64,000 nt of DNA from Dehalococcoidia bacterium (GTDB taxonomy: Bacteria; Chloroflexota; Dehalococcoidia; Lucifugimonadales; CAUZJF01), in assembly GCA_965237635.1 (NCBI GenBank), contig CBDEFX010000001.1:290176-354175 (forward strand), in the 5' to 3' direction. The translations under genes were made by a program, and so were the position numbers. The notes below the pieces were generated by a model that saw nothing but the letters and a program-made list of their open reading frames with translations, did no database searches and had not been told where the DNA came from. Below are positions 2,971-32,207 of this stretch, piece by piece; within the stretch, counting starts at the first letter, position 1; each line of letters opens with the position of its first letter.

Positions 2971-3873
2971 ATGAGCGCGGTAATAAAGACCGACTATCTC
3001 AGCAAGTCCTACGGTGGCGTTCAGGCTGTCTCCAACATCAACCTGGAGGTCCAAGAAGGCGAGGTATTCGGTTATCTCGGCCCCAATGGAGCCGGTAAGA
3101 CGACCACTATCCGCGCCCTGCTGGACTTGATCCGGCCTACGAGTGGAAGCGCCTCGATATTTGGGCTCGATTCCCGAGCCCACAGCCGCGAAATCAAGCG
3201 GCGTTTATCCTACCTCCCCGGTGACATCATGCTCTACGAAAAGCTGACTGGCCGGGAGGCGCTGGCTTACGCGGCGAACCTGCGAGGAGGCGTGGACTGG
3301 GACTTCGTCGAAGAGCTGGCCGAACGCCTCGAGTGTGACTTGACCCGGCAGATCCGCTCGCTCTCCCGTGGCAACAAACAGAAGGTGGGCCTGGTCAAAG
3401 CGTTCATGGGCAAGCCTGATCTGATTATCATGGACGAGCCCTCGAGCGGGTTGGACCCCTTGATGCAGCAGGAGTTCTACCGCCTGATCGAGGAGGTCAA
3501 GGCCGACGGCCGCACGGTGTTCATCTCGTCACACATAATGCCGGAGGTTGAGCGGGTCTGTGACCGCGTAGGGATCATACGTCAGGGCGAGCTGGTCACG
3601 GTGGAGGACATCAACGCCCTCAGGGAGCGCGCGCTACACCAGCTGGAGTTCCACTTTTCCACATCTGTGCCCCCGGAGGCCTTTGACAACCTGACGGGGG
3701 TACGAGACGTGGCGGTCAACGACAGCGTCCTGACCTGCACCGTCATGGGCAAACCGGCCGCTCTCATCAAGGCTGTAGCGAAATTCGAGGTGGTCAAGCT
3801 GGTCAGCCACGAGCCCCATTTGGAGGACGTGTTCCTATCCTACTATGGCGAAGGTGAGCAGCATGCTGCGTAA
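2971..3873 (+). CDS. ABC transporter ATP-binding protein (ABC-2 exporter type)
   Basis: ATG at 2971. Walker A GPNGAGKTT, signature LSRGNKQKV, Walker B LIIMDEP. Confidence 0.9.
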   Translation: MSAVIKTDYLSKSYGGVQAVSNINLEVQEGEVFGYLGPNGAGKTTTIRALLDLIRPTSGSASIFGLDSRAHSREIKRRLSYLPGDIMLYEKLTGREALAYAANLRGGVDWDFVEELAERLECDLTRQIRSLSRGNKQKVGLVKAFMGKPDLIIMDEPSSGLDPLMQQEFYRLIEEVKADGRTVFISSHIMPEVERVCDRVGIIRQGELVTVEDINALRERALHQLEFHFSTSVPPEAFDNLTGVRDVAVNDSVLTCTVMGKPAALIKAVAKFEVVKLVSHEPHLEDVFLSYYGEGEQHAA

Positions 3874-20799: not shown

Positions 20800-20830
20800 A
20801 AAAAAAGGCCCGAACACGACGTTCCGGGCC
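20800..20830 (-). terminator. intrinsic terminator inside the valS 5' leader
   Basis: Minus strand ggcccggaac-gtcgt-gttcgggcc followed by seven U. The U tract ends 45 nt upstream of the valS ATG. Confidence 0.7.
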
Positions 20831-20858
20831 TCGGGTCAACTGCTGGAGTGCGTTGATC

Positions 20859-20918
20859 CTAAGGCTTTGTCCTGAATACGACTACGTTTGATTGAGATCT
20901 ATCGACTTTGTCTGCCAT
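20859..20918 (-). CDS. candidate 19-codon leader peptide with Val-Val-Val
   Basis: AGGA then ATG 20918. Translation MADKVDRSQSNVVVFRTKP, stop TAG 20861..20859. Val codons GTA GTC GTA at 20885..20877. Confidence 0.35.
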   Translation of the reverse strand: MADKVDRSQSNVVVFRTKP

Positions 20919-20938
20919 TGCTTTATCCTAAGGCACAC

Positions 20939-20967
20939 ATTCTAGTAGACGACACAGTCCACGTCAA
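20939..20967 (-). promoter_or_regulatory. candidate sigma70-type promoter of the valS leader
   Basis: Minus strand TTGACG-N17-TAGAAT. Confidence 0.5.
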
Positions 20968-21103
20968 TGAATGATACTCACGCATGGGATGCGGTCAGAA
21001 GCCGTCGGTAAGGTCTCTCGTGGTAGGGGCGCACGGCGTGCGCCCTTGCGATAGCCACTGCCCTTAGAAACAAACCTACGAAATCTGATCACGTCCAGGC
21101 ACA

Positions 21104-28034: not shown

Positions 28035-28065
28035 CTGCAGACCTCCATCGTTACTACTTTAAAGA

Positions 28066-28206
28066 AGAGAAGACTCAAGACTCTTTTCCCACCCGCCCTA
28101 TCGTTGTTTTGCTGGGGGTTCCCCCAAACCCCCGCCAAGGGGGCGTCGCCCCCTTTGGAAACTCCCTTGGCACCATTTTAATGGGAATGGCTTTTTGTGC
28201 GAAGCC
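28066..28206 (+). repeat. copy A of a ~140-bp dispersed repeat rich in G5/C5 runs
   Basis: gagaagactcaagactcttttcccacccgcc...gctgggggttcccccaaacccccgccaagggggcgtcgccccctttggaaa. Closely matches 30211..30358 in the same orientation. Confidence 0.8.
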
Positions 28207-28567: not shown

Positions 28568-28981
28568 TCAGAACGCCTTTCTTCGAGCCCACAGTGCGAA
28601 TGCGTCGTCGAGGCGCTCGATGCGTTGCTGCAACTCCTTGAGGTCGATGGCTTTGAGTCCTAAGGATAGCGCGGCCCGCGCAACACGCACCCTGGCGTGG
28701 GAGCTTGGGTCTTCCATGGCTTCAGCCAGCACATGAGCGCCCTTGAGCATGAGGCCTCTAAGCTCGGTGTGGGCGAAGTCGGCGGCCTCCTCGCGAAGCC
28801 GCTCCAAGGTCGAACGAAACTCGTGGTCGTTCATCCAACGGTAGAGGGTGGAGCGGCCGATGTTGGCTAGCCGGGCGCCCTCGGCCATCGTCGGTGCGGC
28901 AACCAAGTATGGAATGGCCGCGAGCTGGTTCTCGTTGAGGCCGGTCTCGGCGTCCGAAATTTCTGTTCCATTTTGTTCCAT
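28568..28981 (-). CDS. helix-turn-helix DNA-binding protein (phage terminase-small-subunit-like / phBC6A51-type HTH)
   Basis: ATG 28981 preceded by GAGAGGA. LNENQLAAIPYLVAAPTMAEGARLANIGRSTLYRWMND is an HTH. The longer track ORF (to 29275) would overlap the cysH promoter region. Confidence 0.6.
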   Translation of the reverse strand: MEQNGTEISDAETGLNENQLAAIPYLVAAPTMAEGARLANIGRSTLYRWMNDHEFRSTLERLREEAADFAHTELRGLMLKGAHVLAEAMEDPSSHARVRVARAALSLGLKAIDLKELQQRIERLDDAFALWARRKAF

Positions 28982-29127
28982 TGTGTTCCTCTCAGCTTCG
29001 GGCTTTGGTACACCGTGGGACAGTGGGGCAAAGAAATGGGACAGGCCCTGTTGGGTCTGTCCCATAGAACTAGTATAGCACAAGTGTTCGAGGTTGTCGA
29101 GAAGGGGTTGGTTATACGATGCGCCGC

Positions 29128-29156
29128 TTGACACGTTGGGTGCCAGTCCGTACACT
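29128..29156 (+). promoter_or_regulatory. candidate sigma70-type promoter of the cysH leader
   Basis: TTGACA-N17-TACACT. Confidence 0.5.
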
Positions 29157-29165
29157 AGATCCAGC

Positions 29166-29270
29166 ATGTTTGTAGGAACGTCAGCGAATTCCATGGTCTG
29201 CATGTGTTCTTGTCCCCTCAGCTCGGGGGCTCGGGCGGGTCCAACGCCGCCCAGGCACGTGCAGGCGTAG
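29166..29270 (+). CDS. candidate Cys-rich leader peptide (34 codons)
   Basis: ATG 29166 lies about 3 nt from the predicted transcription start, so it is near-leaderless. Translation MFVGTSANSMVCMCSCPLSSGARAGPTPPRHVQA. Cys codons at 29199, 29205 and 29211. Stop TAG 29268..29270. An alternative ATG is at 29193. Confidence 0.35.
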   Translation: MFVGTSANSMVCMCSCPLSSGARAGPTPPRHVQA

Positions 29271-29296
29271 CACACCGCTTAATACTCGGAACCCAG

Positions 29297-29331
29297 CCCC
29301 TCGAGCCCAGACCGCTCGGGGGGTTTTTTTT
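29297..29331 (+). terminator. intrinsic terminator inside the cysH 5' leader
   Basis: cccctcgagc-ccagacc-gctcgggggg followed by eight T. It ends 25 nt upstream of the cysH ATG. Confidence 0.7.
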
Positions 29332-29356
29332 GGCCTTTTCACGGCGAGGAAGTCAG

Positions 29357-30157
29357 ATGCTACAAGAGGATGTTCGAGGAGGGCCTCGCCCTCAAACAGA
29401 GGTAGAAAGAACAGGCGAGGCAGAGCCGCCGGCGGCTACGGATATCGACGCCGTTGCGGATGAATATGAGACCCGCTCCGCCGAGGACGTCATTCGATGG
29501 GCCCTCGATAGATTCGGTCCGATGGTCGCCATATCCACAAGCTTCCAGGCTGTGGGTGCGGTGATCCTGGACATAGCCCACCACGTAGATCCCGACGTTA
29601 GGGTGTTCACAATCGACACCGGTCGGCTTCCGCAGGAAACCTACGACCTTATCGACAGGGTCCGGGAATACTACGGCATTTCTGTTGACGTCTACTACCC
29701 GGACAACGAAGAGCTTGCCCTAATGGTGAGCAAGCATGGCATCAACCCCTTCTACCGGAGCGTCTCTCTGAGACTGCTCTGCTGCAACCTACGCAAGGTT
29801 AAACCCATGAACCGCGCCTTGAAAGACCTGGACGCCTGGATAACGGGCCTCAGGCGGTCCCAGGACGAAACAAGGGCGAACGTGGGCAAGATAGAGGTCG
29901 ACACCGGGCATGGCGGGATCATCAAGATCAACCCGCTTGCCGACTGGAGCAACGACCAGGTCTGGGAGTACATCAAAGCCAACCAGGTGCCCTACAACGA
30001 GCTTTACGATCGAGGCTACACGAGTATAGGCTGCGCACCGTGCACTCGTGCCATTTCACCCGGCGAAGACCTCCGGGCCGGGAGGTGGTGGTGGGAGAAG
30101 GGCATGCCCAAAGAGTGCGGAATTCACCTAGGCCAGACCTGGGGGCGCACCGTTTAG
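29357..30157 (+). CDS. cysH: phosphoadenosine phosphosulfate / adenylylsulfate reductase, thioredoxin-dependent (Fe-S type)
   Basis: ATG 29357 with GGCGAGGAAG upstream. PAPS_reduct fold. CC pair (LLCCNLRKVKP) plus CAPC, and C-terminal KECGIH. The CC...CxxC set is typical of APS reductases with a 4Fe-4S cluster. Confidence 0.9.
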   Translation: MLQEDVRGGPRPQTEVERTGEAEPPAATDIDAVADEYETRSAEDVIRWALDRFGPMVAISTSFQAVGAVILDIAHHVDPDVRVFTIDTGRLPQETYDLIDRVREYYGISVDVYYPDNEELALMVSKHGINPFYRSVSLRLLCCNLRKVKPMNRALKDLDAWITGLRRSQDETRANVGKIEVDTGHGGIIKINPLADWSNDQVWEYIKANQVPYNELYDRGYTSIGCAPCTRAISPGEDLRAGRWWWEKGMPKECGIHLGQTWGRTV

Positions 30158-30210
30158 GCCTGTCCCGGCTTTGCACCAGAAATCTCTGCGACTTGCTACC
30201 CTTAGGAGAT

Positions 30211-30358
30211 GAGAAAACTCAAGGCTCTTTTCCCACCCGCCCACCCTATCGTTGTTTTGCTGGGGGTTCCCCCCAAGCCCCCGCCAATTGGGCGTCGCCC
30301 CCTTTGGAAACCCCCTTAGGGCGCCATTCTTGTGGGAATGTCTTTTTAGTGCTAAGCC
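30211..30358 (+). repeat. copy B of the ~140-bp dispersed repeat
   Basis: gagaaaactcaaggctcttttcccacccgcc...gctgggggttccccccaagcccccgccaattgggcgtcgccccctttggaaa. Direct repeat of 28066..28206. Confidence 0.8.
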
Positions 30359-30476
30359 GGCTATCTCTCAAAGTTCCACAATAGTCCGCCGAGCCTGGTG
30401 CTATCATAGTAGTCCGACATCTGGACGTTCGGCACCATTCTGTCCATACCAGGAAGGCAAAGGAGCGACTCGAACA

Positions 30477-32207
30477 TTGAGTGAAAGAATCACCGAGCAG
30501 ACCCTGATAGCACCCTACGGCGGTACTCTGGTCGACCTGATGGTCCCGCCGGACAAGATCGAAGACGTCAAGGCCGCCGCCAGCCATTTGCCCTCTATCC
30601 AACTCTCGGAACGGTCTATCTGCGACCTGGAGCTACTGGCAACGGGAGCATTCTCCCCACTGGACCGCTTTATGGGGGAGGAGGACCACCGGAGTGTCCT
30701 AGACGAGTTGCGCCTGCACACCGGACACATCTTCCCGATCCCGGTGACGCTGCCCATCGAGCCTGACTCGGCGGTCCGTACAGGAGGCGACATTGCGCTC
30801 AGAGGCTCCCAAAACGAGCTGCTTGCCGTAATGTCCGTAGAAGAGGCGTATGAATGGGACCGAAATGAGGTGGAGGAGCGCGTCTTCGGCACCCACGACC
30901 CCCGCCATCCGCTGGTGGCGGAGATGCACCGTTGGGGCAAGCTCAACGTCTCCGGTAGGTTGAGAGTGCTCAAACTACCGGCACGCCATGATTTCCATGA
31001 GCTAAGACTCACGCCAGCGCAGACCAGGGTGAGGCTTCAGACGTTGGGGACGGGCAACGTTGTTGCGTTTCAGACCCGTAACCCCCTCCATAGGGTCCAC
31101 GAAGAGCTTACCAAGCGCGCGGCCAAAGAGGTGGACGGAGTCCTCCTAATCCATCCTGTAGTCGGACTGACCAAGCCTGGAGACGTAGACCACTACACTC
31201 GTGTACGTACTTACAAGGCCCTGGCCGATGGCTACTACGAGTCCGGCCGCGTAATGCTCGCGCTCCTTCCGCTAGCCATGCGGCTAGCCGGGCCACGTGA
31301 AGCGTTGTGGCACGCCCTAATACGCAGGAACCACGGCGCCAACTTCCTTATCGTAGGCCGAGACCACGCCGGCCCTGGGGTCGACTCCAAGGGTAATCCA
31401 TTCTACGGCCCCTACGATGCGCAAGAGCTCGTCCAGGGCTACACAGACGAGTTGGGAGTGGGTATGGTGCCATTCCGCGAGATGGTATACCTGCCCGACG
31501 AAGACCGTTACGAAGAGGTATCAAAGGTCCCCCCCAAGACGCGCACCGCGTCTATCTCAGGCACCCAGGTGAGGGACGAGTACCTGAGCAACGGCAAATC
31601 CTTGCCAACGTGGTTTACAAGGCCTGAGGTCGCGCAGATCATGGCCGACACCTACCCCCCTCGCCATCAGCAGGGCGTGTGTATCTGGTTTACGGGACTT
31701 AGCGGGTCCGGCAAGTCAACAACCGCAGAAGTCGTCACTGTTCTGCTAATGGAGCACGGCCGGCAGGTGACGGTGCTCGACGGAGACGTTGTACGGACTC
31801 ATCTGTCCAAGGGGCTCGGGTTCAGCAAGGAAGACCGGGACGTCAACATCAACCGGATAGGGTTCGTGGCTTCCGAGATCGCCAGGCACGGCGGTATCGT
31901 CGTGTGTGCAGCCGTAAGCCCTTATAAAGCGGCACGCGACGACGTGCGCAACATGATGGGTCACGAAGGCTTCATCGAGGTGTTCGTGGACACTCCGCTT
32001 TCTGTCTGCGAGGAGCGGGACGTGAAGGGCATGTACGCTATGGCCAGGAGAGGAGAGATCACGGGATTCACCGGCATCGACGACCCGTACGAGCCTCCCG
32101 ACGACCCTGAGATCACGTTGAATACAGTGACTCGCTCAGCGGAGGAGAATGCCCGCTTGATCCTCGAGCTGCTGGCCGACCGGGGTTACGTCAGAAGCGA
32201 GGTATAG
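30477..32207 (+). CDS. sat/cysC: bifunctional sulfate adenylyltransferase / adenylylsulfate kinase
   Basis: Likely TTG start at 30477 (AAGGAG upstream). ATP-sulfurylase motifs VAFQTRNPLHRVH and GRDHAG. C-terminal APS kinase P-loop GLSGSGKST. The upstream part of the track ORF is repeat B. Confidence 0.9.
   Translation: MSERITEQTLIAPYGGTLVDLMVPPDKIEDVKAAASHLPSIQLSERSICDLELLATGAFSPLDRFMGEEDHRSVLDELRLHTGHIFPIPVTLPIEPDSAVRTGGDIALRGSQNELLAVMSVEEAYEWDRNEVEERVFGTHDPRHPLVAEMHRWGKLNVSGRLRVLKLPARHDFHELRLTPAQTRVRLQTLGTGNVVAFQTRNPLHRVHEELTKRAAKEVDGVLLIHPVVGLTKPGDVDHYTRVRTYKALADGYYESGRVMLALLPLAMRLAGPREALWHALIRRNHGANFLIVGRDHAGPGVDSKGNPFYGPYDAQELVQGYTDELGVGMVPFREMVYLPDEDRYEEVSKVPPKTRTASISGTQVRDEYLSNGKSLPTWFTRPEVAQIMADTYPPRHQQGVCIWFTGLSGSGKSTTAEVVTVLLMEHGRQVTVLDGDVVRTHLSKGLGFSKEDRDVNINRIGFVASEIARHGGIVVCAAVSPYKAARDDVRNMMGHEGFIEVFVDTPLSVCEERDVKGMYAMARRGEITGFTGIDDPYEPPDDPEITLNTVTRSAEENARLILELLADRGYVRSEV

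Follow-up and report, generated by a model that had tools for sequence, protein, structure and literature searches.

The question raised by this locus was how its cysH-sat/cysC operon is controlled. The locus lies in a 64,000-nucleotide (nt) stretch of DNA from a Dehalococcoidia bacterium (contig CBDEFX010000001.1, positions 290,176 to 354,175 of the forward strand), below called the window, in which cysH is preceded on the plus strand by a promoter, a short open reading frame (ORF) in which Cys codons are clustered, and an intrinsic terminator. From these elements an earlier reading of the same letters (the original prediction) had proposed a cysteine-sensing attenuator. After the analysis described here, we consider it very likely that the element is a Cys-codon leader-peptide transcription attenuator of cysH-sat/cysC, coupled to charged tRNA-Cys. 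The grounds of this reading are the anatomy of the leader, its conservation, the in-frame selection on the ORF, the predicted folds, and the complementarity between two segments, namely E, the terminator 5' arm, and B, the G-rich segment just 3' of the Cys codons, which consists of B1 and B2. The amino acid fits the pathway, as had been pointed out before, because the reduced sulfur for cysteine comes via cysH, sat and cysC; cysH matched PF01507, and the next gene encodes a fusion of ATP sulfurylase and adenosine 5'-phosphosulfate (APS) kinase.

Inspection of the window located the promoter, the ATG, the 34-codon ORF, the Cys codons, the arm copies, the hairpin with its eight T and the spacing to cysH exactly where the original prediction had placed them (Table 1). 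The promoter agreed with the consensus at 10 of 12 positions, and the consensus scan returned three promoter-like sites in 3.5 kb, with 0.9 expected. The leader ATG lies 9 nt past the -10 box and has no Shine-Dalgarno sequence; because the start codon is so near the -10 box, none is possible for this ORF. The leader mRNA is probably leaderless or has a 5' untranslated region (UTR) of 2–3 nt, given the presumed start site. The three Cys codons are codons 12, 14 and 16, in the arrangement C-M-C-S-C without a consecutive Cys pair, and the stop codon follows about 20 codons after the cluster. It was found that GCTCGGGGG (also GCUCGGGGG) at 29221–29229 is a copy of the terminator 3' arm, and that a second arm copy, GCTCGGG, is located at 29229–29235. 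The terminator stem has 12 pairs, 8 of them G-C, and a 7-nt loop; the hairpin was calculated to have -21.6 to -23.0 kcal/mol (-21.6 for the isolated hairpin), and the cysH ATG (29357) follows the T-run at a distance of 25 nt. Taken in the window alone, the Cys motif was rejected as evidence, because the six-frame translation contains nine C.C.C motifs. Cys makes up 0.6% of the long ORFs of the window, and the Cys run is regarded as above chance because it is conserved in 14 other loci.

The cysH loci for comparison were gathered from genome and metagenome collections and from contigs of CysH homologues. The CysH relatives placed the window in Dehalococcoidia/SAR202, phylum Chloroflexota. It was found that 14 further distinct loci in metagenome-assembled genomes (MAGs) of Dehalococcoidia/SAR202 carry the leader before cysH, which gives 15 with the window. 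These are L002, L003 (=L065), L004, L045, L053, L095, L096 (=L097), L098, L099 (=L100), L101 (=L102), L103, L104, L105 and L106; the leader of L045 runs off the contig end, and the family counts below use the 14 full leaders. CysH of the 14 leader-bearing loci showed 60–79% identity to CysH of the window. The genes upstream of the leader vary, being prs-secA in many loci, gdh and a helix-turn-helix (HTH) gene in the window, and elsewhere an amidase gene, a transposase gene or a LON-domain gene. The order cysH-sat/cysC was kept in all fetched relatives with gene calls. Because the upstream neighbours differ while cysH-sat/cysC always follows, the leader belongs to, and travels with, cysH.

A covariance model, R1, was built from the 14 full leaders, which it scored at 100–175 bits. 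Over the window and 43 loci (310 kb), R1 returned nothing beyond the cysH leaders. Other, mostly more distant relatives scanned with R1, including an AT-rich SAR202 group with CysH identities of 57–58%, yielded no leader. In this AT-rich group (L005, L006 and L048–L050), the spacer between prs and cysH is about 350–400 nt long and has a TTGACC-type promoter and no Cys-codon leader; a different, unrecognised control element may be present there.

A promoter of the form TTGAC(A), with a spacer of 17–19 nt and TAnnnT, occupied the same place in each of the 14 full leaders. The near-leaderless start that had been proposed for the window recurred in the family, the start codon lying 7–10 nt past the -10 box in 12 of 14 leaders (9 nt in seven), without a Shine-Dalgarno sequence. 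Alignment gaps within the ORF were of 3, 6 or 21 nt only, those past the stop codon were mostly of 1, 2, 4 or 5 nt, and the stop codon was aligned in 13 of the leaders. As far as the sequences themselves can tell, this gap pattern is the signature of a translated frame, and the ORF appears to be kept in frame by selection. The motif TGY-NNN-TGT was invariant in the leader alignment; the first Cys is codon 12, and the invariant pair falls on codons 12 and 14, in 11 of the 14. Between two and five Cys codons were found per cluster, and some relatives have CC or CCC in the leader peptide. The original prediction had also counted two Met codons into the cluster. They are present in the window, but the Met positions were not conserved; Met codons were therefore rejected as co-sensors, and the putative sensor is Cys only. 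On the whole, the 15 loci share the promoter, the near-leaderless start, the in-frame ORF, the invariant Cys codons and the terminator, which upheld the Cys-codon attenuator that had been read from the window.

In each of the 14 full leaders, a U-rich tract follows a hairpin with a folding energy between -19 and -32 kcal/mol. The terminator was 93.5% paired across the 14 sequences, with three pairs changed on both sides, and lies about 20–60 nt before the cysH ATG in relatives. Because this gap leaves no evident room for a promoter, cysH appears to be transcribed by read-through only; and because the upstream neighbour in the window is divergent, on the minus strand, the terminator is not the end of an upstream plus-strand gene. 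The terminator bears on a first alternative, translational attenuation of the mycobacterial type, in which stalling at the Cys tract would remodel the RNA at the cysH ribosome-binding site, the hairpin and U-run being secondary. The start looks leaderless here too, and the leaderless polycysteine short ORFs (sORFs) of mycobacteria, the nearest experimentally studied system, are reported to unmask a downstream Shine-Dalgarno sequence (bioRxiv 10.1101/834739). However, a canonical terminator of the strength given above, with its U-rich tract, is present in every full leader, and the cysH Shine-Dalgarno sequence at 29343–29349 was unpaired in the predicted folds, outside every predicted helix, so we regard translational attenuation as decidedly unlikely.

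Either arm copy had been predicted to pair with the terminator 5' arm. This was borne out by calculation, with -22.2 kcal/mol for B1 (29219–29233) and -19.0 kcal/mol for the second copy, and complementarity just 3' of the Cys codons was common to the family. In alignment-free duplex scans, the best upstream partner of E was found 17–29 nt 3' of the first Cys codon, within B, in 13 of 14 leaders. For the window, the scan gave -20.9 kcal/mol for B1:E versus -10.0 kcal/mol for the next-best upstream site. Compared with shuffles, the B segments had a mean z of -1.7; in the window, -20.9 stood against -11.6 ± 2.7, and 0.3% of the shuffles were as good. The near-identical strains L107 and L108 (98.5–98.7% identity across the aligned 2.1 kb) differ from the window by 9–12 single-nucleotide polymorphisms (SNPs), mostly C-to-T, in 29100–29360 (261 nt), so that variation is higher in the leader than in its flanks. 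The C-to-U changes at 29222 in B1 and at 29302 in E keep the pairing as G.U, which is compatible with the attenuator model but no proof of it.

Further helices were recognised in the family. The P3 hairpin, in the 3' part of the ORF, was 90% paired, with three of six pairs changed on both sides, and the B2:D helix was 76% paired, with seven of eight pairs changed on both sides. Segment D (GCCGCCCC) directly follows the stop codon in most relatives, and its equivalent in the window, CGCCGCCC, is inside the ORF at 29244–29252. The A:C helix, between the segment of the Cys codons and the last part of the ORF, was 77% paired.

These pairings bear on a second alternative, in which the product of the short ORF is a functional micropeptide rich in Cys, the terminator belongs to the micropeptide gene, and cysH is expressed by constitutive leak-through without any sensor. 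The frame is kept, and non-Cys residues recur, e.g. an N-terminal MIVKK and (W/R)GTGAAPG, as would be expected of such a peptide. Nevertheless, the conserved non-Cys stretch corresponds to the B1/B2 RNA, which is complementary to the terminator arm and to D; the length and the C-terminus of the peptide vary, and so do the number and position of the Cys codons outside the invariant C.C pair. A strong terminator before an essential, promoter-less biosynthetic operon makes sense only with regulated read-through, and the micropeptide explanation is quite improbable.

Folding of the ribosome-free window leader gave -72 to -75 kcal/mol, with a z of -2.7 against shuffles. The fold consisted of the A:C stem (29196–29208 with 29254–29266), the hairpins CCCCUC...GGGGG and GGGCGG...CCGCCC, and the terminator. 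The effect of a ribosome was calculated with an equilibrium masking model, in which the nascent transcript ends before the terminator 3' arm and the ribosome footprint is masked. The predicted probability of B:E pairing, P(B:E), in the window was 0.03 without a ribosome and 0.90 when the footprint was placed on either of the two invariant Cys codons, in agreement with the earlier proposal that a stalled ribosome would free the segment for the 5' arm. Averaged over the 14 leaders, P(B:E) was 0.72 with the ribosome stalled, 0.44 with no ribosome and 0.50 with the ribosome at the stop codon (one-sided Wilcoxon p ~0.01–0.02), a trend in the sense expected of attenuation.

The original prediction had seen no S-adenosylmethionine (SAM) riboswitch or T-box, and a scan of the whole window against Rfam 15 at gathering thresholds agreed, yielding one tRNA and no riboswitch, T-box or leader family; over 28950–29450 at E up to 10, only chance-level matches to unrelated families were obtained. 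A ligand- or protein-binding structured RNA (riboswitch-like, for a sulfur metabolite), with the terminator as expression platform and the ORF incidental, is highly improbable, because, although the leader is more structured than its shuffles and P3 and B2:D are conserved with compensatory changes, no Rfam model matched at E up to 10, and multiple-of-three gaps confined to the ORF, a conserved stop codon and invariant in-frame Cys codons are unexpected for a non-coding aptamer.

Several results weigh against the attenuator reading. L001, which has the closest CysH fetched (82% identity), is without the leader. At 3870–4000 of L001, cysH is preceded by a same-strand gene, and the spacer contains a fragment resembling a tRNA 3' end, GGTTCAAGTCCGAG; loss of the leader by rearrangement or integration is suggested. 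L004 and L106 lack an ATG where the usual spacing from the -10 box would place it. The covariation of B:E was not significant, the cognate pairs having -17.6 kcal/mol and the non-cognate pairs -17.0 kcal/mol (permutation p ~0.12), because the C-rich arm hardly varies; and on fixed columns of the MAFFT alignment B1:E was only 70% paired, because differences in the length of the G-run shift the register. The anti-antiterminator was inconsistent across the family, with A:C and B2:D paired to the extents given above and A:B1 weak, and L099 never formed the antiterminator in the folding model.

The thermodynamics were likewise divided. The comparison of folds that the original prediction had called for favoured the antiterminator in the stalled nascent RNA, but the full-length terminator fold was about 19 kcal/mol more stable than the fold in which B1:E was enforced. 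Because of this difference the switch must be kinetic, with B1:E forming before the 3' arm is made. The ribosome at the stop codon posed a further difficulty. It had been assumed that a ribosome reading through would occlude the arm copy. The folding did not show this: the stop codon is 39 nt beyond B1, and P(B:E) in the window was also 0.90 with the ribosome at stop, so any discrimination must be kinetic. For the window, and likewise for about half of the relatives, equilibrium P(B:E) was no different at stop from that in the stalled state, and the model thus leaves unexplained how a ribosome at stop might prevent antitermination in the window.

If the Cys-codon attenuator operates as proposed, transcription would begin at the conserved promoter, and the RNA 5' end would be at or near the AUG of the 34-codon ORF. 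When Cys-tRNA is plentiful, the ribosome would pass the Cys codons at 29199–29213. B (29221–29238) could then fold locally with CCCCUC at 29214–29219 and CGCCGCCC at 29244–29252, within the A:C stem; the terminator (29295–29331) would form once its 3' arm is made, and RNA polymerase would end at about 29331, 25 nt before cysH. A shortage of Cys-tRNA would stall the ribosome at codons 12–16, with its footprint over segment A and CCCCUC. B1 would be single-stranded just past the leading edge of the ribosome and could capture the terminator 5' arm while the 3' arm is still untranscribed; the terminator would then be blocked, and cysH-sat/cysC would be transcribed. CCCCUC is a candidate anti-antiterminator, proposed from the predicted folds of the window, and is not conserved as such in relatives. 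In most relatives the antiterminator would be composite, made up of an outer helix, B1:E, and an inner one, B2:D, and a ribosome at the stop codon would mask D, resulting in termination. This refinement does not apply directly to the window, because D is shifted into the ORF. In this scheme we infer where transcription starts, that the ribosome stalls, which segment acts as anti-antiterminator and how the operon responds to cysteine.

A wider conclusion may be offered tentatively: sulfate assimilation in SAR202/Dehalococcoidia would be controlled by near-leaderless attenuators that sense Cys-tRNA and have an antiterminator in two parts, B1:E outer and B2:D inner, and these attenuators would form a family not described before. 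We hold this to be possible, with somewhat more doubt than confidence.

The original prediction had remarked that the layout is mirrored before valS, and the same order of elements was indeed observed on the minus strand at 20800–20970 of the window, with the valS ATG at about 20754. The promoter is TTGACG, a 17-nt spacer and TAGAAT; it is followed by a leader ORF, MADKVDRSQSNVVVFRTKP and a stop codon, with three consecutive Val codons, and then by the hairpin GGCCCGGAACGTCGTGTTCGGGCC and T7. By its sequence, the valS leader is a candidate Val-codon attenuator. If true, the cysH leader family and the Val-codon leader of valS would point to ribosome-read amino-acid regulation in the style of a 'ribulon' in an abundant, uncultured ocean lineage.

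Table 1. The cysH leader, the genes that it precedes and its upstream neighbour, in coordinates of the window.
Feature	Coordinates	Strand	Description
HTH-like gene, small, divergent upstream neighbour	28568–28982	-	weak HTH_Tnp_1_2 and HTH_17 matches below curated cut-offs
Promoter, sigma-70-type	29128–29156	+	TTGACA 29128–29133, 17-nt spacer, TACACT 29151–29156
Leader ORF, 34 codons	29166–29270	+	product MFVGTSANSMVCMCSCPLSSGARAGPTPPRHVQA; stop TAG 29268–29270
Segment A, GGUCUGCAUGUGU	29196–29208	+	holds the first two Cys codons; pairs with segment C in ribosome-free minimum free energy (MFE) folds
Cys codon cluster, proposed ribosome stall site	29199–29213	+	TGC 29199, TGT 29205, TGT 29211
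CCCCUC, candidate anti-antiterminator	29214–29219	+	local partner of the B1 G-run in MFE folds
B1, GCUCGGGGGCU, proposed antiterminator strand	29221–29231	+	copy of the terminator 3' arm; duplex with the terminator 5' arm -22.2 kcal/mol
B2, GCUCGGGCGG, second arm copy	29229–29238	+	local pairing with CGCCGCCC 29244–29252, or with the terminator 5' arm
Segment C, GGCACGUGCAGGC, end of ORF	29254–29266	+	pairs with segment A; in relatives also local hairpin P3
Intrinsic terminator	29295–29331	+	5' arm 29295–29306, loop 29307–29313, 3' arm 29314–29325, T8 29324–29331
cysH Shine-Dalgarno sequence, GAGGAAG	29343–29349	+	sequence reading
cysH, APS/3'-phosphoadenosine 5'-phosphosulfate (PAPS) reductase, first regulated gene	29357–30157	+	PF01507, E 2.3e-49
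sat-cysC fusion (ATP sulfurylase and APS kinase), second operon gene	30252–32207	+	PF14306, PF01747, PF01583

With regard to the surrounding genes, the true start of sat-cysC is later than the mechanical ORF start. The start of the HTH-like gene is most plausibly at 28982 (MEQNG...). In a near-identical strain, the public call of this gene reaches the equivalent of 29203, antisense over the cysH promoter and the leader ORF, and is probably over-extended. A divergent minus-strand promoter was noticed at 29100–29072 (TCGACA, 17-nt spacer, TATACT; region 29018–29100). It is followed by three GGGACAG motifs, including an inverted repeat (29036–29048 / 29053–29065), which may serve the HTH gene as an operator or as a hairpin in its 5' UTR. 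The surroundings also include a direct repeat, about 150 nt long, with copies at 28063–28206 and 30207–30358 that are 86% identical and 2.14 kb apart. The copies flank the block of HTH gene, leader and cysH, one lying between gdh and the HTH gene and the other between cysH and sat-cysC, and hold the short GC-rich palindromes GGGGGTTCCCCC and AAGGGGGCGTCGCCCCCTT. As a part of the attenuator the repeats were rejected, because they are absent from all other fetched cysH loci; they may be an element like a miniature inverted-repeat transposable element (MITE) or a repetitive extragenic palindrome (REP).

The practical consequences concern annotation as well as physiology. The short ORF is unannotated, and in the near-identical strain the public call of the upstream neighbour crosses the leader antisense; model R1 could annotate the family in MAGs. 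The ratio of metatranscriptome coverage before and after the terminator could report cysteine limitation. The element gives a testable sulfur-assimilation regulator in SAR202/Dehalococcoidia, which are abundant and uncultured and whose gene regulation is almost unknown.

Among known systems, the classical leader-peptide attenuators are those of the amino-acid operons of E. coli, such as trp, his, leu, thr, pheA and ilv. As in these, a short ORF in which codons for the end product are clustered lies close to the promoter of the cysH operon, and the first structural gene is preceded by an intrinsic terminator. The terminator 5' arm has a possible partner past these codons, and because thermodynamics favour the terminator, the switch is a kinetic one. 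The differences from the E. coli attenuators are cysteine as the amino acid, an apparently leaderless start without a Shine-Dalgarno sequence, and a host from Chloroflexota. The Cys codons alternate as C-x-C instead of being consecutive, and the stop codon is far past the antiterminator strand.

Cys codons have been connected with upstream control in other phyla. In Rhodobacterales, uORFC-8-2 before cysS has Cys codons in a stem and an intrinsic terminator stem with a U-run, and ribosome-mediated attenuation sensing Cys-tRNA was proposed for it (Brewer et al. 2021, PMC8632094). The likeness to the cysH leader is in the conserved Cys codons of an upstream ORF, placed in a stem and followed by an intrinsic terminator. 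In contrast, uORFC-8-2 controls a tRNA synthetase gene, has tandem Cys codons 14–15, is found in Alphaproteobacteria and differs in sequence and structure. The statement, in the original prediction, that Cys leader peptides had been predicted in Actinobacteria was correct. Short ORFs with Cys runs were predicted there before cys and cbs operons by comparative genomics; a terminator hairpin is not obvious in them, and dependence on Rho has been suggested (Seliverstov et al. 2005, PMC1262725). Those leaders share with ours a short Cys-codon ORF upstream of a cysteine-biosynthesis operon, whereas the cysH family conserves a canonical terminator and a complementary antiterminator strand. The element is therefore less unusual than the original prediction implied, Cys leader attenuators having already been described in other phyla.

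The mycobacterial leaderless polycysteine sORFs, termed the 'Cys ribulon', were found by experiment to be cysteine-responsive translational attenuators (Canestrari et al. 2020, bioRxiv 10.1101/834739 / Mol Microbiol 114:93), which is cited by a 2026 M. tuberculosis paper (PMC13236596). For Ms5788A, the mechanism demonstrated is the unmasking of a downstream Shine-Dalgarno sequence, with no intrinsic terminator present, and the sORFs were selected for at least two consecutive Cys codons (bioRxiv 10.1101/834739). The cysH leader resembles these sORFs in being an unannotated, leaderless-looking ORF with clustered Cys codons as the first cistron of a sulfur operon, with pausing at Cys codons as the proposed sensor. 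The window differs in having no consecutive Cys pair, whereas in the examples described the Cys codons are consecutive and near the C-terminus. Moreover, the cysH leaders have a terminator, no masking of a Shine-Dalgarno sequence is predicted for them, and the phylum is another; no sequence similarity was seen to what the paper describes.

The cysH leader family lies outside the actinobacterial and mycobacterial Cys families, from which it differs in gene, phylum and sequence, and no account of such an element from Chloroflexi or SAR202 turned up in full-text literature searches. It is a new phylum and a new operon for a well-known kind of regulation and is mechanistically unsurprising. It would extend Cys-codon attenuators from Actinobacteria and Alphaproteobacteria to Chloroflexota, and would join the leaderless start known from mycobacteria to a terminator/antiterminator switch of the classical, enterobacterial type.

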